From positions 206,132 to 270,131 of the forward strand of contig DNVR01000019.1 in assembly GCA_003507445.1 (NCBI GenBank): a stretch of DNA of 64,000 nt, given 5' to 3'. Source of the stretch: Candidatus Moraniibacteriota bacterium (GTDB lineage Bacteria; Patescibacteriota; Minisyncoccia; Moranbacterales; GWC2-37-73). Position numbers and translations under genes: made by a program. This document shows positions 2,402 through 61,313 of the stretch, piece after piece. Below the pieces are notes generated by a model. It saw only the letters and a program-made list of their open reading frames with translations. It made no database searches and had not been told where the DNA came from. The first letter of the stretch is position 1; each line of letters begins with the position of its first letter.

Positions 2402-2432
2402 CACTCACTCAACGTCGGCCGTGGAAGAGTGA
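2402..2432. repeat. GC-rich 31-bp repeat CACTCACTCAACGTCGGCCGTGGAAGAGTGA (copy 1 of 3)
   Basis: near-identical copies at 40534-40564 and 41184-41215; inverted termini cactca/tgagtg around CGGCCG core. Confidence 0.6.
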
Positions 2433-7396: not shown

Positions 7397-8059
7397 ATGA
7401 ACAAACAAGAAATTATAAACAATACTGCAAAATATGCACGTGAAACGCTAGAGGGTGAAACTTCTGGTCACGACTGGTGGCACGTCTATCGTGTTTGGAA
7501 GATGGCACAGAACATAGGACAAAAAGAAAACGCCGACATGTTTGTGGTTGAACTGGCTGCACTTCTTCATGACATTGCTGATTATAAAATGCATAGTGGT
7601 GACGACACGGTCGGGTCAGGGGTTGCAAGAGAGTGGCTCGAAAAGCAAGGAGTTGATGATGAAACTATTTTCCATGTTTGTGAAATTATAAAAGAAGCAT
7701 CATTTAAGGGTGAAAAAGTTGAATCAAAAATAAATACTGTTGAGGGAAAAGTTGTGCAAGACGCAGATCGCTTGGATGCTATCGGCGCGATTGGTATAGC
7801 TAGAGGATTCATGTTTGCGGGAAATAAAAGTTTACCCATGTATGATCCAGATATAAAACCATTGGAGATACATGACTTCGAGGTATATAAAAATATAAAA
7901 AGACCAACATACACACAAATAAATCATTTCTATGAAAAACTTTTACTGCTCAAGGATTTGATGAATACTGAAAGTGGAAAAGAAATTGCACAGGGTAGGC
8001 ATGTGATCATGGAGAACTATTTGAAAGATTTTTTTAATGAGTGGGAGGGCAAGGCTTAA
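7397..8059 (+). CDS. HD-domain phosphohydrolase
   Basis: 220 aa; H...HD motif (AALLHDIADYK), downstream D (VQDADRLDAIG). Confidence 0.75.
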   Translation: MNKQEIINNTAKYARETLEGETSGHDWWHVYRVWKMAQNIGQKENADMFVVELAALLHDIADYKMHSGDDTVGSGVAREWLEKQGVDDETIFHVCEIIKEASFKGEKVESKINTVEGKVVQDADRLDAIGAIGIARGFMFAGNKSLPMYDPDIKPLEIHDFEVYKNIKRPTYTQINHFYEKLLLLKDLMNTESGKEIAQGRHVIMENYLKDFFNEWEGKA

Positions 8060-8071
8060 ATTTGCTTTTCC

Positions 8072-8160
8072 AAAGCCATTGCGCGGTTCAATCTGCTCTC
8101 AACCGACTCCCAATTTTCAAGGATATTAGTTCGAAGCGTGTACCCTAGCCCGTGCATAGA
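8072..8160. repeat. island-boundary conserved block, copy A
   Basis: AAAGCCATTGCGCGGTTCAATCTGCTCTCAAC...CCCAATTTTC...GTTCGAAGCGTGTACCCTAGC; 4 copies (8072, 9472, 10731, 11909); followed by terminator-like hairpin 8176-8205 and TTGACA box (12-nt spacer to TATGCT) 8235-8262. Confidence 0.7.
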
Positions 8161-9394: not shown

Positions 9395-9471
9395 CAACAT
9401 CTTGAAAATGCAGGATTATACTGGCATGTTCATCTCACACGAGAAGAATGTGTCAGTTTTTTTATTTCATT

Positions 9472-9565
9472 AAAGTCATTACTTGCTCCAATCTTGTCTC
9501 AACAACATACCAATTTTTAAGTATATTAGTTCGAAGTGCGTACTTTAGCCCGTACAGACTAAAAT
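9472..9565. repeat. island-boundary conserved block, copy B
   Basis: AAAGTCATTACTTGCTCCAATCTTGTCTCAACAACATACCAATTTTT...GTTCGAAGTGCGTACTTTAGC; then hairpin/T-run 9565-9592. Confidence 0.7.
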
Positions 9566-10699: not shown

Positions 10700-10730
10700 A
10701 TTTCTAGCAGTTGAGTATTATTGTTTTATC

Positions 10731-10808
10731 AAAGCCTTTGCTCGCTCTAATCTTGCCTCAACAACATCCCAATTTTCGATGATATCGGTACCCTAGCTTG
10801 TGCATGCT
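10731..10808. repeat. island-boundary conserved block, copy C (10-nt deletion relative to others)
   Basis: AAAGCCTTTGCTCGCTCTAATCTTGCCTCAACAACATCCCAATTTTCGATGATATCGGTACCCTAGC; followed by terminator-like hairpin 10811-10838 and TTGACA box (12-nt spacer to TATGCA) 10877-10905. Confidence 0.7.
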
Positions 10809-11839: not shown

Positions 11840-11864
11840 AAAGACATAACGGCAAATGCCATGG

Positions 11865-11899
11865 AGACTCGCAAATCGAAAGATTTGCGAGTCTTTTTT
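11865..11899 (+). terminator. rho-independent terminator
   Basis: gagactcgcaaatc-gaaa-gatttgcgagtc followed by TTTTTT. Confidence 0.65.
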
Positions 11900-11908
11900 C
11901 ATTTCATT

Positions 11909-11993
11909 AAAGTTTTTGCGCGCTCCAATCTTGTCTCAACAACATCCCAATTTTCTATTATATCGGTTCGAAGCGTGTACCCTAGCTCTGTGC
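11909..11993. repeat. island-boundary conserved block, copy D
   Basis: AAAGTTTTTGCGCGCTCCAATCTTGTCTCAACAACATCCCAATTTTCTATTATATCGGTTCGAAGCGTGTACCCTAGC; followed by the ddl promoter (TATAAT at ~12036). Confidence 0.7.
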
Positions 11994-31374: not shown

Positions 31375-32112
31375 TTGATTATTGAAATTATTATGTCTTA
31401 TCATTTTAAACTCGAACAATTTGAAGGGCCGCTGGATTTGCTTTTGCAACTGACTCAGCAGGAAAAGCTTGATATTACTCGAGTAAGTTTGGCGAAAATT
31501 GCAGATCAATATTTGGCATATATCGCTGAGGCCAAAGACATCACGCTTGCTCATCTGGCTGATTTTTTGTCAGTGGCATCTCGTCTTATTTTGATCAAAT
31601 CCAAAGCCTTGCTTCCGATGTTGGAATTTACTGAAGAGGAAGAGGAGGAAATTAAAGATTTGGAATATCAATTGGCAGAGTATAAAAAATTTAAAGATGC
31701 TTCGGCAAAGATTGCGCCCATTTTTGATTCGCCAAAAGCAAGTTTTGCGCGCGAAGGATTTTTGGGCTTGGCAACACTTTTTTATCCGCCAGAAAATATT
31801 GTTGCTTTTGATTTGCAAAAAGCTTTTGCCAAAGTGTTGGGCGAAATTCCGGTTCAAGAAAAATTGGAAGAAGAAATGGTAAAAGAAGTTCTAACTTTGG
31901 AAGACAGAATTGTCCATTTGCAAAACACCTTGAGAGACCGAGTGCAAACATCATTTTCCGAACTTGTTGCAAATGCAAAAGACAAAGTTGAAATTGTGGT
32001 TTCTTTTCTTGCAATGCTCGAATTGGTAAAACAACGAATCATCCACGTGGAGCAAGGAGAACTATTTTCCGAAATACATCTTAAACACAAAGATCATAAA
32101 AGTGCTACGTAA
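31375..32112 (+). CDS. scpA: segregation and condensation protein A
   Basis: 245 aa; FEGPLDLLLQL N-terminal motif, C-terminal winged helix; likely true start MSYHF (31393). Confidence 0.8.
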   Translation: MIIEIIMSYHFKLEQFEGPLDLLLQLTQQEKLDITRVSLAKIADQYLAYIAEAKDITLAHLADFLSVASRLILIKSKALLPMLEFTEEEEEEIKDLEYQLAEYKKFKDASAKIAPIFDSPKASFAREGFLGLATLFYPPENIVAFDLQKAFAKVLGEIPVQEKLEEEMVKEVLTLEDRIVHLQNTLRDRVQTSFSELVANAKDKVEIVVSFLAMLELVKQRIIHVEQGELFSEIHLKHKDHKSAT

Positions 32113-33054: not shown

Positions 33055-33130
33055 GCTTGAATTATGGGTAAAATGAGAGTAGAATGGAAATATAAGTCAA
33101 CTGACGTTGTTACGTAGCATGTTACGTAAC
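33055..33130. repeat. 76-bp direct repeat, left flank of GNAT cassette
   Basis: about 95% identical to 33628-33703; ends in the TACGTA tandem palindrome. Confidence 0.75.
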
Positions 33131-33142
33131 AAAATTATATGT

Positions 33143-33601
33143 ATGGAAATCGTGATTAGAAAAACAAATGAATTCGAAAAAGCTTTGGGAATTGCGAAAA
33201 CATTGCCGGAGTTTTTCACGCAGCAAGGGCTGGATGAAATCAAGGTGCAGCTTCCTGATCAAGCAGTATATGGAGCATATGACGGCGAGGAATTGATCGC
33301 CTGCATTAGCTATAAGAAAGTCAATGACTCAACAATTGATATTGCTTTCCTTTTTATGCTGGAGACTTATCATGGAAAGGGCATTGGCACGCGACTTGTT
33401 GAAGAGAGTCTTGCTGTTGAAGGCGGGGAATTCAAGGTTTGCCAGGTTAATACTTTGGCAGAGACTGTTGAAGATGCAGGATATGCAAGAACAAGAAAAT
33501 TTTATGAAAAATTGGGTTTTATTCCAATTGAAATCATCCACCCCTATCCCGGTTGGGGCATGGAAAATCCGTGTCAGATTTATGTGAGATTTTTGAAATA
33601 A
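33143..33601 (+). CDS. GNAT-family N-acetyltransferase
   Basis: 152 aa from MEIVIRK; acetyl-CoA motif HGKGIGTRLVE; the ORF-track start 33107 lies inside the palindrome. Confidence 0.7.
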   Translation: MEIVIRKTNEFEKALGIAKTLPEFFTQQGLDEIKVQLPDQAVYGAYDGEELIACISYKKVNDSTIDIAFLFMLETYHGKGIGTRLVEESLAVEGGEFKVCQVNTLAETVEDAGYARTRKFYEKLGFIPIEIIHPYPGWGMENPCQIYVRFLK

Positions 33602-33627
33602 AGCAGGCCTTGAGTCTGTTTTATTGT

Positions 33628-33703
33628 GCTTGAATTATGGGTGGAATGAGAGTAGAATGGAAATATAAGTCAACTGATGTTGTTACGTAGCATGTTACGT
33701 AAC
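33628..33703. repeat. 76-bp direct repeat, right flank of GNAT cassette
   Basis: gcttgaattatgggtggaatgagagtagaatggaaatataagtcaactgatgttgttacgtagcatgttacgtaac. Confidence 0.75.
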
Positions 33704-33793
33704 AAGGTTTTATTTTTGAAAAATAAGTTATGCACAGTTGTGTTTGAATTTATTGAATGATATAATATCACTGTAAGAGTTTAAAATAAAAAT

Positions 33794-38305: not shown

Positions 38306-38308
38306 TTT

Positions 38309-38330
38309 GCTACGTAACATGCTACGTAAC
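38309..38330. repeat. tandem TACGTA palindrome element (gctacgtaac-at-gctacgtaac)
   Basis: same family; 60 nt upstream of AbrB-like gene. Confidence 0.7.
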
Positions 38331-38357
38331 AAAATAAAAAATAAAAATTAATCTAGA

Positions 38358-38390: not shown

Positions 38391-38555
38391 ATGAAAAAGA
38401 AAGAAGAACTTGTTCGCAAAGTGACTGGAGTTGGGAAGCGAAGCCTCTCAATCGTCATCCCATCCGAAATCGTCGCCGAACTCGGGATTAAAGAACGCCA
38501 AAAAATGACCTTCAAAATCGACCGCAAGAAAATAATTATAAGTGATTGGAAATAA
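38391..38555 (+). CDS. AbrB/MazE/SpoVT-family small DNA-binding protein (antitoxin-like)
   Basis: 54 aa, not in ORF track; KRSLSIVIPSEIVAELGIKERQKMTF matches swapped-hairpin AbrB/MazE domain. Confidence 0.55.
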   Translation: MKKKEELVRKVTGVGKRSLSIVIPSEIVAELGIKERQKMTFKIDRKKIIISDWK

Positions 38556-38567
38556 TTCTATTTATAT

Positions 38568-39995
38568 ATGCGTGAAAAACACATAACACAGGAATCATCA
38601 AAATTGCAAAATTCTAATTTATCTGGGATAAAATTTGAAAACGATCAAACTTATTCCAAGAGCATTTCGCAAGAGTTGGCTGAAATGAGGATACAACAAG
38701 AAAAAAAAGATATTGACGAAATAGATAAAATTATGGGATTTTTTCGTGTACCTGAAAGAAATAATGAAGTACATGTTTTTGATGCTGGCGAAAAATTTGA
38801 TCCATATTCTGAAATTGATAAAATTAGGGTTGGAAGTAAAAAAGAAAAAAGACATAATCTGGAAATATATAAGAAGAAATTAATATTTCAGCGTAAGGGG
38901 ATTACTGAAATGCAAACTCATTTGTACGAGTTAATGCAAAAGAAAGAGACAATGACGGTTGAAATGCTTAAGCAATCCATTGCCGACCTTGAAGATAAAT
39001 ATGCATTATGCGATGAGCAAAGACGTATTTTTGATTCTGCAATAAAAATATATGCCGAAAGACATAATGGTATAGTTGAAAATACTCGAGATTGCATTGA
39101 TGAAGAAGGGAACATTGATGGAAAAAAATTATATGAGAAAATTTTTGGTAGACAACCTTATGGGGATGTTAATGTTGAAATATTGCCAATTACTATATAT
39201 CTAAGAACTTTTGATTTTGAAGATTATGCGTATGTTCATTCAAATGCATATAAAAACAAAAGAGAAATTGATGATGATGAATTTAAAAATGCTAGTATGT
39301 CAGGAGGAGTAAAATTGTGGAACTCTGGATTTTCTGGTCTGGAAAGCGTTGTAACACTTCAAAACGCTAATAATGTCGTTAAAAGAATGTTTAAGAGTAT
39401 TTCTGATGAAACACGTGATCATGAAGATCAGCATAATTTTAATGATCTTATCGATGAAGCGTTTATAAATAACGGTAGCGCATCATCTCCTATTGGCGAA
39501 AACGAGGAAATATTACGGGATGTGGATGAAAAAGAAAAAAAGAAACAAGACGCTGAAAGTCGTGACATAGGCATTGAAATGATGATAGGGGATGAGATGT
39601 GCGCATTTTTTAAAACCGGTAATTCAGCTCAATATATTCATGACGCAATATTAAAAAAAGATACTATATATGAATATGGGAAGAATTATAGAAAAGAAAA
39701 AAGGAAACATGGAGAGCAATTTTCTCAAAATTACAAAGACCTTGTTGATGGAGGAATTGTTGCTATGTTTGATTTACTCGATCATGGTTATTCGCGAAAA
39801 GAGGTTATAGCCTTGCTATTTTTTGATCTTCCTTCACAGTGGGGAAAAGTTGTTTCTAGAGTTTTGGAAAGAAGAAAAACAACAACAGAAGAAAAACAAG
39901 ATAGAAAAAAAATTGTGAATATTATTGATAGAATCAGTAGACATATTACTGGGAAGTTTAGTGATATCTATGATTTTTTTAGGGTAAGATTATAA
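38568..39995 (+). CDS. hypothetical 475-aa protein, candidate effector paired with AbrB/MazE-like gene
   Basis: starts 13 nt after the AbrB-like stop; charged, Lys/Glu-rich; no recognisable catalytic motif. Confidence 0.5.
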   Translation: MREKHITQESSKLQNSNLSGIKFENDQTYSKSISQELAEMRIQQEKKDIDEIDKIMGFFRVPERNNEVHVFDAGEKFDPYSEIDKIRVGSKKEKRHNLEIYKKKLIFQRKGITEMQTHLYELMQKKETMTVEMLKQSIADLEDKYALCDEQRRIFDSAIKIYAERHNGIVENTRDCIDEEGNIDGKKLYEKIFGRQPYGDVNVEILPITIYLRTFDFEDYAYVHSNAYKNKREIDDDEFKNASMSGGVKLWNSGFSGLESVVTLQNANNVVKRMFKSISDETRDHEDQHNFNDLIDEAFINNGSASSPIGENEEILRDVDEKEKKKQDAESRDIGIEMMIGDEMCAFFKTGNSAQYIHDAILKKDTIYEYGKNYRKEKRKHGEQFSQNYKDLVDGGIVAMFDLLDHGYSRKEVIALLFFDLPSQWGKVVSRVLERRKTTTEEKQDRKKIVNIIDRISRHITGKFSDIYDFFRVRL

Positions 39996-40030
39996 AATAA
40001 TATGGGTATTGAAAAAATAATGATTTCAGA

Positions 40031-40453
40031 TTGGAAATAAAAAATATGAGAATTGTGGTTAGGGCTATAATTAAAAATGACGATTCACTGTTGGTAATTA
40101 AGAGAATTAAAAATGGGAAAACATATTTTGTTTTTCCTGGCGGCGGGGTTGATGATGGAGAAAGTCATCCCATTGCACTAAAAAGAGAATGCAAAGAAGA
40201 ATTGGGCCTAGATGTTTCAGTATTGGAATTTATGTATGATTTTGATTTTATCAAAAAGGATAATGAGCCACAGAAAGAATATTTTTATCAATGCGATATA
40301 TTAGGAGGAAAACTCGGAAGTGGTGAAGGAGAAGAATATAGCCCAGACCGCAATAGTGGAATTTATGAGCCAATGTGGATAAAGTTAGAGGAACTTTCAG
40401 ATTTGGATTTGAGACCAATCGAAATAAAAAATAAATTAATAGCTGAATTATAA
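40031..40453 (+). CDS. NUDIX hydrolase
   Basis: Nudix box GGGVDDGESHPIALKRECKEELGL; likely true start ATG 40046 (MRIVV). Confidence 0.75.
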   Translation: MEIKNMRIVVRAIIKNDDSLLVIKRIKNGKTYFVFPGGGVDDGESHPIALKRECKEELGLDVSVLEFMYDFDFIKKDNEPQKEYFYQCDILGGKLGSGEGEEYSPDRNSGIYEPMWIKLEELSDLDLRPIEIKNKLIAEL

Positions 40454-40456
40454 TTA

Positions 40457-40478
40457 GCTACGTAACATGTTACGTAGC
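40457..40478. repeat. tandem TACGTA palindrome element (gctacgtaac-at-gttacgtagc)
   Basis: same family. Confidence 0.7.
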
Positions 40479-40533
40479 ACTCCAGAGAAATAGAAGAGAT
40501 TTTACGGGGTAAAAAATAACCAATCAAACATAG

Positions 40534-40564
40534 CATTCACTCAACGTCGGCCGTGGAAGAGTGA
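40534..40564. repeat. GC-rich 31-bp repeat CATTCACTCAACGTCGGCCGTGGAAGAGTGA (copy 2)
   Basis: upstream flank of PaaX-like gene. Confidence 0.6.
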
Positions 40565-40622
40565 TGTAAGGTGGGATATTATTAAGATGGAGATCTTTAT
40601 TTTTTTATAGTATAATCGTGGT

Positions 40623-41210
40623 ATGTATAGGCCAGGAGTTGTTCAAAAGAAAATATTGTTGGCGCTTTTAGGTGGGGTTGCTTTGGGTGTGTCTTCATCG
40701 CCTCGACAATATTTTAGTACTTTGCGAAAATTGAAAAAAGAATGGGTAAAAATAAATCCACAGAATTTTAATCGCTCCATCAAGAGTCTTTCGAAGGAAA
40801 AACTTATAAGCGAGATCGAGCTTCCTGATGGTTCTTTTAAATTGACCTTAACTGAAAAAGGCAAGAAGCAGGCTCGCGTGCTGAATATCTTCGGAAAGTC
40901 GATAGATTTCAAGAAGCCGAAGAAATGGGATGGCAAGTGGCGAGTTGTTATGTTTGATATCCCTGAAAAAGATAGACTTTTTCGCGACGTGCTCAGAAAT
41001 CACTTGAAGGATTTGAAATTTAGGAAATTGCAGCACAGCGTTTTTGTTTCACCTTATCCTTTCGAGAAACCTATCTTGGAATTGGTCGCTCTGTATTCGG
41101 CGGAAAAATTTGTCAGAGTCATAACTGCACAGAAATTGGATAATGGTAAATATCTCGAAAAAATGTTTTTCAAAAAAAACAAACACTCACTCAACGTCGG
41201 CCGTGGATGA
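40623..41210 (+). CDS. PaaX-like winged-helix regulator domain protein
   Basis: 195 aa; N-terminal wHTH-like region; C-terminal WDGKWRVVMFDIPEKDRLFRDVLRNHLKDLKFRKLQHSVFV resembles the PaaX C-terminal (also Cas2-like) fold motif; last 9 codons run into repeat copy 3. Confidence 0.4.
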   Translation: MYRPGVVQKKILLALLGGVALGVSSSPRQYFSTLRKLKKEWVKINPQNFNRSIKSLSKEKLISEIELPDGSFKLTLTEKGKKQARVLNIFGKSIDFKKPKKWDGKWRVVMFDIPEKDRLFRDVLRNHLKDLKFRKLQHSVFVSPYPFEKPILELVALYSAEKFVRVITAQKLDNGKYLEKMFFKKNKHSLNVGRG

Positions 41211-41215
41211 GTGAG
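41184..41215. repeat. GC-rich 31-bp repeat CACTCACTCAACGTCGGCCGTGGATGAGTGAG (copy 3)
   Basis: downstream flank of PaaX-like gene. Confidence 0.6.
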
Positions 41216-41240
41216 TTAATAACAAATAAATAATTTCAGA

Positions 41241-41918
41241 TTGGAAATAAAAAATATGGAAAAAAGTAAGATAAAAGCAATAATATTTGATATGGATGGT
41301 GTGTTGGTTAATTCTGAACCAATACATGAAAGAGCGGAAATGGAGATTTGTCTTGAGTTTGGTATGAAGGTTTCAAAACGTGAATGGGATGGTTTTCGGG
41401 GCAAGAAGCTTGAAGACATCTTTTCATACGCCAGCAAAAAATATGGAACTGGAAATGAGCCTATTGAGGAGATGATTGAGCGTAAGATTGCTCGGTATTT
41501 GTCATTGGCACTTGCTGAAATGGATCTCGTCCCCGGTGCATATGATTTTCTGCAGAAGCTAAAAAAGAATGGAAAATATAGCTACGCGCTGACGACCTCA
41601 GGCAGGAAGGTACAGCAGGAAAAAATTCTTTCAAAATTCAAACTTGCTGATTATTTTGAAATCATGATTACTTCGGATGATGTGAAGAATGGCAAGCCTC
41701 ATCCAGAGCCATATGCAATCACAGTGCAAAAACTGAATGAGCTGCCCGAGGCATGCTTGGTTATCGAAGATTCTGATAATGGAATTTTGTCTGCCAAGGC
41801 TGCAGGATGTTTTGCTTGCGGGATCACGACGACATTTGGTCGCGAGAAATTGGAAGGTGCAGGCGCAGACATGGTAGTTTCTGATTTTTTTGAATTATCA
41901 AAAATATTATTCGATTAG
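41241..41918 (+). CDS. HAD-superfamily hydrolase (beta-phosphoglucomutase-like, subfamily IA)
   Basis: motif I IIFDMDGVL, motif III K, motif IV EDSDNG; likely true start ATG 41256. Confidence 0.8.
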   Translation: MEIKNMEKSKIKAIIFDMDGVLVNSEPIHERAEMEICLEFGMKVSKREWDGFRGKKLEDIFSYASKKYGTGNEPIEEMIERKIARYLSLALAEMDLVPGAYDFLQKLKKNGKYSYALTTSGRKVQQEKILSKFKLADYFEIMITSDDVKNGKPHPEPYAITVQKLNELPEACLVIEDSDNGILSAKAAGCFACGITTTFGREKLEGAGADMVVSDFFELSKILFD

Positions 41919-41926
41919 TATTACAT

Positions 41927-41948
41927 GCTACGTAACATGCTACGTAGC
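41927..41948. repeat. tandem TACGTA palindrome element (gctacgtaac-at-gctacgtagc)
   Basis: same family; last copy before scpB. Confidence 0.7.
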
Positions 41949-42094
41949 AACCCAATGAAATAATATTAAATTTCATGGGTTAAAAAATAAAAAGCATTTA
42001 AACAATCTCACATCCCATAGGGAATTACGTAGCTAATTACATAATTCCGAAAAAGCTGGTATACTTTCAGTAAGTAATAAAAAAATTAAAAGCT

Positions 42095-42643
42095 ATGGAA
42101 TTGGAAAAATTACAAGGGGTTATTGAAAGCATTTTGTTTGTTAGTGGGGAGCCGATTAAGAGGGCGAAGTTGGCAAAGATCGTGGGGCTTGGGGCTGAAG
42201 AAGTTGATGCTGCTTTGGCTGTGTTGAGCGAGAAATATGCTTTGGCGGGCAGCGGGCTTAGTTTGCTTGTTAAGGGCGAGGAAGTGCAATTGGTTTCTAA
42301 TCCTGAAAATGCTGAGTTTATTGAAAAATTGGTTAAAAGTGAACTTCAAGATTCGCTTTCTAATGCTGCTTTGGAAGTCGTTTCAATCATTGCATATCGC
42401 GGTCCAATTTCGAAAACTGAAATTGAGGCAATTCGAGGTGTTAATTGCGCTTATACACTCAGAAATCTGCTTTTGAGAGGGCTTATTGAGCGAAGTGACA
42501 ATCCAAATGATTCTCGAGGCTATGTTTATGCGATTACATTTGATTTTCTTAAAAAGTTGGGGATTGAATCCGTGAAAAATCTTCCAGAGTATGGTATACT
42601 TTCAGCAGATGAGAGAATTAATTCAATAATCTCAAAAGAATAA
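42095..42643 (+). CDS. scpB: segregation and condensation protein B
   Basis: 182 aa; two winged-helix repeats, ILESILFVSGEPI N-terminal motif. Confidence 0.8.
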   Translation: MELEKLQGVIESILFVSGEPIKRAKLAKIVGLGAEEVDAALAVLSEKYALAGSGLSLLVKGEEVQLVSNPENAEFIEKLVKSELQDSLSNAALEVVSIIAYRGPISKTEIEAIRGVNCAYTLRNLLLRGLIERSDNPNDSRGYVYAITFDFLKKLGIESVKNLPEYGILSADERINSIISKE

Positions 42644-61000: not shown

Positions 61001-61073
61001 GGGCACATAGCTCAGTTGGTAGAGCAGCGGCCTTTTAAGCCGATGGTCGGGGGTTCGAATCCCTCTGTGCCCA
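61001..61073 (+). tRNA. tRNA-Lys (anticodon UUU)
   Basis: manual fold: 7-bp acceptor GGGCACA/UGUGCCC, D-arm GCUC/GAGC, anticodon loop CUUUUAA, T-arm GGGGG-UUCGAAU-CCCUC, discriminator A; no encoded CCA. Confidence 0.9.
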
Positions 61074-61112
61074 CAAAAACGAAAATCCCTTTTGGGATTT
61101 TTTTGTTTTTGT
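61067..61112. repeat. 46-bp direct repeat 1 (tRNA-Lys 3' end + terminator hairpin)
   Basis: gtgcccacaaaaacgaaaatcccttttgggatttttttgtttttgt; identical copy at 61268-61313; followed by inverted tRNA fragment gcacagagggattcgaac (61113-61130). Confidence 0.7.
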
Positions 61113-61267
61113 GCACAGAGGGATTCGAACGGGCAGAAGCTAAGCAAGTTGACTTTCAGCAGAAAGGCAACGCAGCGTGCGTCGATGAATGCGAGGAATA
61201 CGAGCATTCAGCGCTGCCCAGGACAAGGAGCACGTGAGCGGCGGCGAACGAGCGACGCGCGCAGAGT

Positions 61268-61313
61268 GTGCCCACAAAAACGAAAATCCCTTTTGGGATT
61301 TTTTTGTTTTTGT
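61268..61313. repeat. 46-bp direct repeat 2 (att-like duplicate of tRNA-Lys 3' end + terminator)
   Basis: brackets a 155-bp GC-rich segment (61113-61267). Confidence 0.7.

Follow-up and report, generated by a model that had tools for sequence, protein, structure and literature searches.

Remnants of an AbrB-like gene end before unrelated genes: probable serial displacement at a Moranbacteria locus

Why do two unrelated genes, one for a NUDIX hydrolase and one for a HAD-family phosphatase, begin behind the same 26 nucleotides, and why do these nucleotides read like the end of a third gene? The question was raised by a 64,000-nt stretch of a Moranbacteria contig (DNVR01000019.1), hereafter the window, in which a small AbrB-like gene is followed by a 475-aa gene, the NUDIX gene, a PaaX-like gene and the HAD gene. 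An earlier note on this DNA had suggested cassette shuffling, in which different cargo genes were placed behind the 3' end of an AbrB-like gene. The best reading of the locus, which we consider probable, is serial displacement by recombination anchored in the tail of the AbrB-like gene, as in the orphan arrays of Rhs and type VI secretion systems (T6SS). Coordinates are positions in the window, and L-numbers (L001, L003 and so on) are the loci of relatives that were compared with it; the protein genes, remnants and junction repeats given with window coordinates all lie on the plus strand.

The shared junction and its origin

The 26-mer ATTTCAGATTGGAAATAAAAAATATG is present in two exact copies, one (40023..40048) reaching into the start of the NUDIX gene (40046..40453; Pfam NUDIX, E = 1.1e-15) and the other (41233..41258) into that of the HAD gene (41256..41918; Pfam HAD_2, E = 3.3e-35). 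The bases flanking the two copies are non-identical on either side, and no match was obtained in any of 100 shuffles, even with up to three mismatches allowed (0 expected). The identity noticed earlier is therefore exact and not a product of base composition. Each copy consists of 18 nt of AbrB-derived remnant and a final 8 nt, AAAATATG, which is the most frequent start context in this A/T-rich window (GC content 36%); AAAAT is the top 5-mer before ATG (8 of 63 genes), and Shine-Dalgarno-like motifs are scarce (4 of 63). As the final 8 nt are generic, the specific shared part of the junction is the 18-nt AbrB-derived piece. A shorter sequence, GATTGGAAATAA, has exactly three copies, one at the stop of the real AbrB gene (38544-38555) and two shortly 5' of the NUDIX and HAD start codons (40029-40040 and 41239-41250). 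The MEIKNM N-termini of the two open reading frames (ORFs), already held to be artifactual in the earlier note, stem solely from a TTG inside GATTGG; in public gene calls both genes start at the ATG (40046 and 41256), giving proteins of 135 aa and 220 aa.

The earlier note had named one objection to its own reading, that the 26-mer might be a common translation-initiation context. This holds for the last 8 nt and fails for the 18-nt AbrB part. When a metagenome collection was scanned with the 20-mer GATTGGAAATAAAAAATATG, 27 matches were found, three of them from relatives, all in the arrangement hairpin-remnant-NUDIX, and the others in unrelated contexts. These matches point to a lineage-restricted junction rather than a general initiation context.

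The intact gene (38391..38555) encodes a 54-aa protein ending in KKIIISDWK*, with a match to PF04014 (MazE_antitoxin, SpoVT/AbrB fold) over residues 15-50 that scores 27.3 bits against a cutoff of 24.7. Remnant r1 (40014..40040; AAA ATA ATG ATT TCA GAT TGG AAA TAA) reads IMISDWK* in frame at 40017-40040, and weaker similarity reaches back to about 40003. Remnant r2 (41230..41250; ATA ATT TCA GAT TGG AAA TAA) is preceded by an in-frame TAA and reads IISDWK*. Both remnants recognised in the earlier note are thus real and in frame, the IMISDWK* reading beginning at 40017 and not at 40018, one base off. Compared with the last 27 nt of the intact AbrB genes of L012 (copy 1), L013 and L010, r1 is identical at 26 of 27 positions and r2 at 25 of 27, and the remnants of the sister genome L003 match at 24 of 24. 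The window's own AbrB gene carries another Ser allele, AGT, in place of the TCA of the remnants, and it is for this reason that gene and remnants share only 12 nt. Such a difference was found wherever a remnant could be set against the resident tail: the alleles always differ (Ser AGT vs TCA, TCT vs AGC, or F vs W).

For the HAD gene, a relative with an intact AbrB gene in front was found. In BLASTN, window positions 41223-41837, which comprise r2 and HAD sequence, align continuously with L008 10135-10748, where an intact AbrB gene (...KKIIISDWK, TGA) stands 7-8 nt 5' of a HAD orthologue of 72% aa identity. The comparison proposed in the earlier note, a search of relatives for intact AbrB genes upstream of the cargo homologues, was therefore successful for HAD; for NUDIX it gave only one distant case, L070, in which a distant AbrB gene lies 4 nt 5' of a NUDIX gene. 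A 60%-identical NUDIX homologue in L101 lies within another AbrB-led array and does not adjoin AbrB. These alignments show both ...ISDWK* pieces to be true AbrB gene ends; they would be non-coding scars, the displaced 3' ends of an AbrB/MazE-fold gene.

Could the pieces instead be an initiation, promoter or regulatory element that merely looks like an AbrB tail, or an A/T-rich coincidence? AAAATATG is a common start context, and a start codon always follows the remnant at a distance of 1-15 nt, where the remnant may now contribute to initiation. Besides the result of the shuffles, the remnant alleles track the local AbrB alleles (AGC in L001 and L004, TCA or AGT elsewhere), homology extends to nine codons plus the stop in L001 and L004, and degenerate copies show frame-breaking changes, none of which fits a functional motif or chance. 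A consensus promoter scan gave no site overlapping either remnant, Rfam searched over the whole window returned tRNA-Lys only, with no family for hairpins, palindromes or junction, and the 20-mer was not enriched in metagenomes outside relatives. We regard this explanation as very improbable, largely refuted by the tracking of alleles and by the intact AbrB-HAD junction in L008.

Breakpoints, mosaic genes and recurrent remnants

The loci closest to the window came from metagenome-assembled genomes of Parcubacteria and Moranbacteria. L003 is ~90% identical to the window and syntenic with it from scpA past mraY. Its order is 'pal' (a palindrome described below) - AbrB' (KRIIISDFKS*) - hairpin - remnant - NUDIX - pal - hairpin - PaaX-like - hairpin - remnant - 369-aa gene - scpB, and it differs from the window in two respects: it has only a hairpin where the window has the 475-aa gene, and the 369-aa gene where the window has HAD. 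Homology between the two breaks at 38528 (AbrB codon 46), at 40010 (left edge of r1) and at 41250 (the stop of r2), so that all three breakpoints in this 4-kb stretch coincide with copies of the AbrB tail.

The first of these breakpoints lies inside the intact gene, whose last nine codons and stop (38526..38555) carry the foreign AGT allele. Identity to the AbrB gene of L003 is 90% over codons 1-45 and 59% over codons 46-54; to copy 2 of L012, which likewise precedes a homologue of the 475-aa gene, it is 71% and 89%. Since the tail resembles L012 copy 2 and the body resembles L003, the window's AbrB tail would have arrived with the 475-aa gene. This gene (38568..39995; function unassigned) is absent from L003 and would be the most recent cargo. 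Its product, of which an identical copy is assigned to Candidatus Moranbacteria in one source, has only three clusters in the database and no match in Pfam, NCBIfam or PADLOC, and an AlphaFold model built on a three-sequence alignment was unusable (mean predicted local distance difference test score, pLDDT, 45; predicted template modelling score, pTM, 0.39).

A comparable change of tail separates L001 from L009, whose AbrB genes are 95% identical over codons 1-45 and 74% over codons 46-54. In L009, the empty form, AbrB is directly followed by hairpins and the PaaX-like gene. In L001, the occupied form, a foreign 27-nt tail, 127 nt and a gene for an Mrr-type nuclease are inserted at codon 45/46, and the remnant that follows the insert is identical at 28 of 29 positions to the tail of L009. 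This pair is the clearest single event, and the intact AbrB genes are mosaics of a resident body and a foreign tail. Cassette shuffling as first suggested is supported by this pair, by the tail breakpoints with L003 and by the intact AbrB-HAD junction of L008. Its more particular form, cargo placed behind the AbrB 3' end, stands in so far as cargo follows AbrB tails, but the events look more like the entry of new DNA within the tail, by which the former tail was shifted downstream.

The remnants were next considered over about 1.2 Mb of AbrB-containing loci, searched with motif and DNA scans. Twelve lay on the AbrB strand and none antisense; one more lay in L095, a locus that was not oriented, on the same strand as the AbrB and NUDIX genes of that locus. 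Remnants follow an Mrr gene in L001, L002, L006 and L004, a small inverted-repeat element in L013 and L104, and a flavodoxin gene in L101; that of L012 is degenerate. The array of L007 reads AbrB' - hairpin - ArsR-like - hairpin - remnant - GNAT - remnant - next gene. A remnant always precedes the NUDIX gene, as seen in L003, L016, L080, L093 and L095, and the unit of hairpin 'hp' and remnant found at r2 recurs in L003 (twice), L014, L016 and L095. In L095 the whole hairpin-remnant-NUDIX-palindrome unit lies upstream of the AbrB gene, so the remnant travels with the cargo. Where a junction has no hairpin, the reading frame of the upstream cargo may continue into the remnant and terminate there (Mrr and flavodoxin ORFs), which is what imprecise joining would give. 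No remnant exceeds about 36 nt, and the left edges are grouped at codons 43-48; both features speak for some preference of site.

The length of the remnants also bears on a second explanation, in which complete two-gene AbrB-cargo modules accumulated side by side and deletions later removed most of each redundant downstream AbrB copy, so that only the last codons remained. Two to three full AbrB copies do occur within 10 kb in L012, L050, L051 and L063, and AbrB pseudogenes are common (L009, L011, L012 copy 1, L014, L016, L101). However, random deletion should give a range of lengths, which is not what the ~13 remnants show. Neither does simple deletion predict a resident-like body joined to a foreign tail, as in L001, and the Mrr and flavodoxin ORFs that run straight into a remnant also speak against it. 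We consider such decay of tandem modules unlikely.

The AbrB-like family as a whole comprises 34 clusters of 52-55 aa with a nearly invariant C-terminus, KKIIISDWK; PF04014 is present in 31 of the 34, placing the family in this fold, and some sources label the relatives MazE or PrlF antitoxins. In the tail codons 46-54, third-position variation is no lower than elsewhere, and Ser51 is encoded by five codons. A strongly conserved DNA site in the tail was thus ruled out; there are instead discrete alleles common to divergent genes. Identical 27-nt tails were found in AbrB genes whose bodies are only 69-74% identical, which points to exchange. The gene 3' of AbrB belongs to more than 50 unrelated groups in 71 loci (nuclease, HAD, NUDIX, SET, SMC, UMP-kinase-like and others). 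It starts at most 25 nt from the AbrB stop in 28 of ~66 cases. No toxin family was detected among the downstream genes of the 71 loci; as the downstream gene differs in almost every genome, AbrB is not a cognate antitoxin. From its neighbourhoods it rather seems to behave as a constant leader ahead of a variable slot. No relative of the family was found in the viral contigs scanned, hence no evidence for a phage vehicle.

In relatives the AbrB-like gene is often a pseudogene, disrupted by stops within the frame, by loss of the start codon or by conversion of Trp53 to a stop (L009 10001-10165, L011 10001-10165, L012 1052-1216, L014 285-449, L101 20-184). Many lineages seem able to do without its function, also where they have retained the array.

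Routes of entry into the AbrB tail

Serial displacement would proceed as follows. The AbrB-like gene stands at the downstream edge of a restriction-modification/accessory island in this Moranbacteria lineage, and its last 9-12 codons would be the entry point for new genes. Incoming DNA would bring its own copy of the last AbrB codons together with a cargo gene, and would recombine within those codons. Because the incoming DNA carries its own tail codons, AbrB would stay intact, now with a foreign tail, and the old tail, joined to the start region of the gene formerly after AbrB, would move downstream with the old cargo. Repeats of this event would give the arrangement AbrB - 475-aa gene - r1 - NUDIX ... 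PaaX-like - hairpin - r2 - HAD, from which we infer the order of the insertion events. The joining would be ordinary recombination on AbrB homology, either homologous or homology-facilitated illegitimate, rather than the work of a dedicated integrase, and in some cases it may be helped by small hairpin repeats that entered AbrB at the A/T-rich codons 47-49. The remnant has probably been kept since it would preserve the original, closely coupled start of a cargo gene that formerly stood only a few bases behind AbrB.

These hairpin repeats may, however, have a larger part. Hairpin or MITE-like (miniature inverted-repeat transposable element) repeats, designated hp, hpB, hpC and 'miteA', could enter AbrB at codons 47-49, after which recombination between dispersed copies would link the severed tail, together with its cargo, to upstream DNA of other origin. 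Such an element directly precedes nine of the ~13 remnants (window r2, two in L003, and those of L014, L016, L095, L013, L104 and L007). A 'miteA' copy lies inside the AbrB gene of L016, at exactly the region of codons 47-49 and without rearrangement, and the hp repeat is dispersed, with a third window copy at 2406. On the other hand, no hairpin adjoins r1 of the window or the remnants of L001, L004 and L101, and the hairpins may instead be operators of the regulator genes that they flank. We take this route to be possible but tentative; it may also run alongside serial displacement rather than replace it.

Several observations weigh against serial displacement by ordinary recombination. The left edges of the remnants are clustered more tightly than random illegitimate joins would be, as though one site were preferred or a dedicated enzyme at work; the insertion of hairpin repeats at codons 47-49 could account for part of this. 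The fusion of Mrr and remnant is common to two species (L001 and L004), so some units move ready-made and are not created afresh each time. No circle, excision product or within-population variant was seen among public contigs with an identical HAD or 475-aa protein. Finally, no recombinase was found in the inserted segments, among ~40 annotated genes of the window or in the families shared by 96 neighbouring genes of 15 loci; this speaks for ordinary recombination, but the search covered only part of the window and 20-kb pieces of relatives.

Integron-like, site-specific capture would account for some of these points. The A-rich start of the tail (AAAARATAAT...) would be an attachment core for circular, one-tail cassettes moved by an unidentified recombinase, with AbrB giving transcription and translational coupling. 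Insertions recur at the same few codons; the units are repeat-bounded, with a remnant 5' and a palindrome 3'; a GNAT gene of the same island has direct repeats and an empty site in L003 (see below); and the tails shared by genes with divergent bodies would be expected. Against this stand the same search, which gave no integrase, resolvase or transposase, a palindrome core (GTTACGT) unlike the GTTRRRY of integrons, imprecise ends at which cargo ORFs lose their own stop, the lack of circular or excised forms in the assemblies, and third-codon positions of the tail that are not unusually conserved. We give this explanation little credence.

A related proposal brings in the PaaX-like gene. The locus would be a capture platform of Moranbacteria-type bacteria of the candidate phyla radiation (CPR), integrase-less or with an unknown recombinase, in which the last ~30 nt of AbrB serve both as insertion site and as expression or coupling leader for single-gene cassettes, while the PaaX/Cas2-like gene, flanked by lineage-specific hairpins, recognises or moves hairpin-bounded units. 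This, too, seems to us doubtful. Switching within populations is not supported: all public contigs that encode an identical HAD or 475-aa protein agree with the window at 99.9-100% identity, and the short ones among them end at repeats, as expected from assembly forks.

CPR bacteria, or Patescibacteria, have tiny genomes with few recognisable mobile elements, and their acquisition of accessory genes is poorly understood. Serial displacement would make the locus a record, at the level of sequence, of single genes acquired repeatedly at one defined position with no integrase visible. The remnants would be readable time stamps of insertion order and a search key for variable slots in other CPR genomes. 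Should a dedicated mechanism underlie the tight clustering of the junctions, it would represent a new kind of gene-capture system. Our literature search returned no paper linking AbrB with CPR, and the integron papers that mention Patescibacteria were not relevant.

Palindromes, framed genes and the surrounding island

The palindrome 'pal' consists of two 10-bp units, GYTACGTARC-AT-GYTACGTARC, and sits right after stop codons and ~60 nt 5' of AbrB. The window has seven copies of ~24 nt each, at 2351, 22390, 33108, 33681, 38308, 40456 and 41926. The copy upstream of AbrB (38308..38331) is kept in L001, L003, L007, L009, L012 and L016; it persists between species that share only ~75% identity in the AbrB coding DNA, with Y/R changes that compensate one another and so preserve the palindrome. 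It may be an operator of the AbrB-like protein or a terminator without a U-tract. Another copy (40456..40479) lies right after the NUDIX stop and forms the right edge of the NUDIX unit; in L095, homology to this unit ends in 'pal', which is there fused to the AbrB upstream region. A third (41926..41949) follows HAD. A degenerate pal-like site at ~42024-42047, upstream of scpB, is where homology to L003 resumes, and it marks the right edge of the last slot.

The PaaX-like gene (40623..41210; Pfam PaaX_M, E = 1.2e-22) combines a winged helix with a Cas2-like PaaX_M domain and has a copy of hairpin 'hp', identified as a repeat family and, for the first copy, by folding, on both flanks (40538..40564 and 41188..41214, both on the plus strand), the second directly before r2. 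In every lineage checked, the gene is framed by one palindrome or hairpin of ~30-45 nt on each side, whose sequence is lineage-specific. The framed units extend over 40538-41214 in the window, 7070-8200 in L001, 10190-11090 in L009, 10178-11201 in L011, 4066-4777 in L101, 331-1056 in L010, 18174-18934 in L061 and 6277-6938 in L060. Extra hairpin copies stand in tandem in L001 and L009 and at a remote position in the window (2406-2432). In L007 an ArsR-like gene is framed by hairpins as the PaaX-like gene is elsewhere. The hairpins may serve an autoregulated repressor as operators, or they may bound a small mobile unit of the REP/RAYT type (repetitive extragenic palindromes and their associated tyrosine transposase). 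The literature search found nothing on hairpin-framed PaaX-like genes and no paper linking PaaX with Cas2-like proteins.

A further inverted-repeat element of ~40-50 nt (CCCAGTTAAAT...ATTTAACGGG) is present twice inside the AbrB gene of L016 (9948-10001 and 10127-10167), upstream of AbrB in L009 (9950-9995) and directly before the remnants of L013 (~11860-11902) and L104 (1-16). From its sequence it looks like a MITE with an A/T-rich target.

The locus is part of a variable island between scpA (31375..32112; Pfam SMC_ScpA) and scpB (42095..42643; Pfam SMC_ScpB). In L013 scpA adjoins scpB, which provides an empty site for the island. In the window the ~10 kb between them hold genes for a glyoxalase, a GNAT protein, a Dam methylase, a GmrSD type IV enzyme, a type II restriction-enzyme-like protein and an N4/N6 methylase, a 154-aa gene, AbrB and the cargo genes; L003 has another set at this site (Fic, DpnII-like, a 1175-aa protein). 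AbrB in relatives likewise stands after restriction or defence genes (type I HsdR, helicases, Fic, NERD). The GNAT gene (33055..33722 with its repeats; Pfam GNAT) is bounded by 95-nt direct repeats of family D6 (33055-33149 and 33628-33722, 91% identical), each of which ends in 'pal'. L003 has a single 95-nt repeat and no GNAT gene at this position, an empty site and thus an insertion signature, and the GNAT gene appears to be a second cassette-like insertion in the island.

Two more repeats were seen elsewhere in the window. An intergenic repeat of ~93 nt has four copies (8057-8149, 9457-9549, 10716-10808 and 11894-11986; 62-83% identical), 1.2-1.4 kb apart, between genes without a Pfam match, and has no Rfam match itself. 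At 61001-61313, tRNA-Lys (61001-61074) and a terminator are followed by a GC-rich 154-nt segment that opens with an inverted copy of the tRNA T-arm, and the 3' end of the tRNA with its terminator is duplicated exactly over 47 nt (61066-61112 and 61267-61313), possibly as the scar of a mini-insertion.

Comparison with known systems

A small PF04014 gene just 5' of a second gene, often overlapping or touching it, is also the layout of type II toxin-antitoxin modules with antitoxins of the MazE/AbrB fold. Here, however, the partner is no known toxin and varies in nearly every genome.

Integrative elements that enter a gene at its 3' end and replace this end with one of their own include the islands in tRNA genes and prophage e14 in icd; they carry an integrase next to the attachment site and measure kilobases to tens of kilobases. 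As with these elements, the target gene remains whole, its 3' end now being that of the element, with differences at synonymous sites, and the original end forms a direct repeat on the far side. This is what we found for the tail at 38526-38555 and r1 at 40014-40040, and for the tail and remnant of L001 set against the empty L009. The difference is that an insert here comprises one gene (0.9-1.5 kb) or just a hairpin and carries no recombinase: those seen, the 475-aa gene (no family match), an Mrr-type nuclease gene or a hairpin, contained no integrase.

Integron arrays, too, consist of single, unrelated, tightly spaced genes in the same orientation beyond a fixed entry point, with the newer ones nearest that point and repeated palindromic elements at the gene 3' ends. 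The locus differs from them in that no IntI was found (among the window genes and neighbour families already given), in that the palindromes do not show the R''/L''-L'/R' architecture of attC, as judged from a core, GTTACGT, unlike GTTRRRY and without a run of an attC-specific model, and in that the junction lies within coding sequence, as an AbrB remnant into which cargo ORFs are sometimes fused.

The closest likeness is to the Rhs, contact-dependent inhibition (CDI) and T6SS arrays. Their sequential displacement has been attributed to homology-facilitated illegitimate recombination in T6SS/Rhs arrays (Kirchberger et al. 2017, PMC5361080); Jackson et al. 2009, as cited there, is on sequential (C-terminal) displacement in Rhs/CDI/T6SS arrays. 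In both cases there is a conserved upstream anchor, new modules displace older ones downstream, and the displaced modules retain a short piece of the conserved gene; at the present locus the displaced modules are preceded by a short fragment of the upstream gene and the intact gene is a mosaic. The anchor of those arrays is the large 5' part of a toxin gene, whereas here it is the last ~30 nt of a 54-aa gene of a DNA-binding fold, in a CPR host, and their modules pair a toxin tip with immunity, whereas the modules here are unrelated enzymes and other proteins (NUDIX, HAD, GNAT, nuclease, flavodoxin, SET). What is new, on our analysis, would be a variant of this displacement process, anchored in the tail of a small regulator-fold gene in a CPR bacterium.

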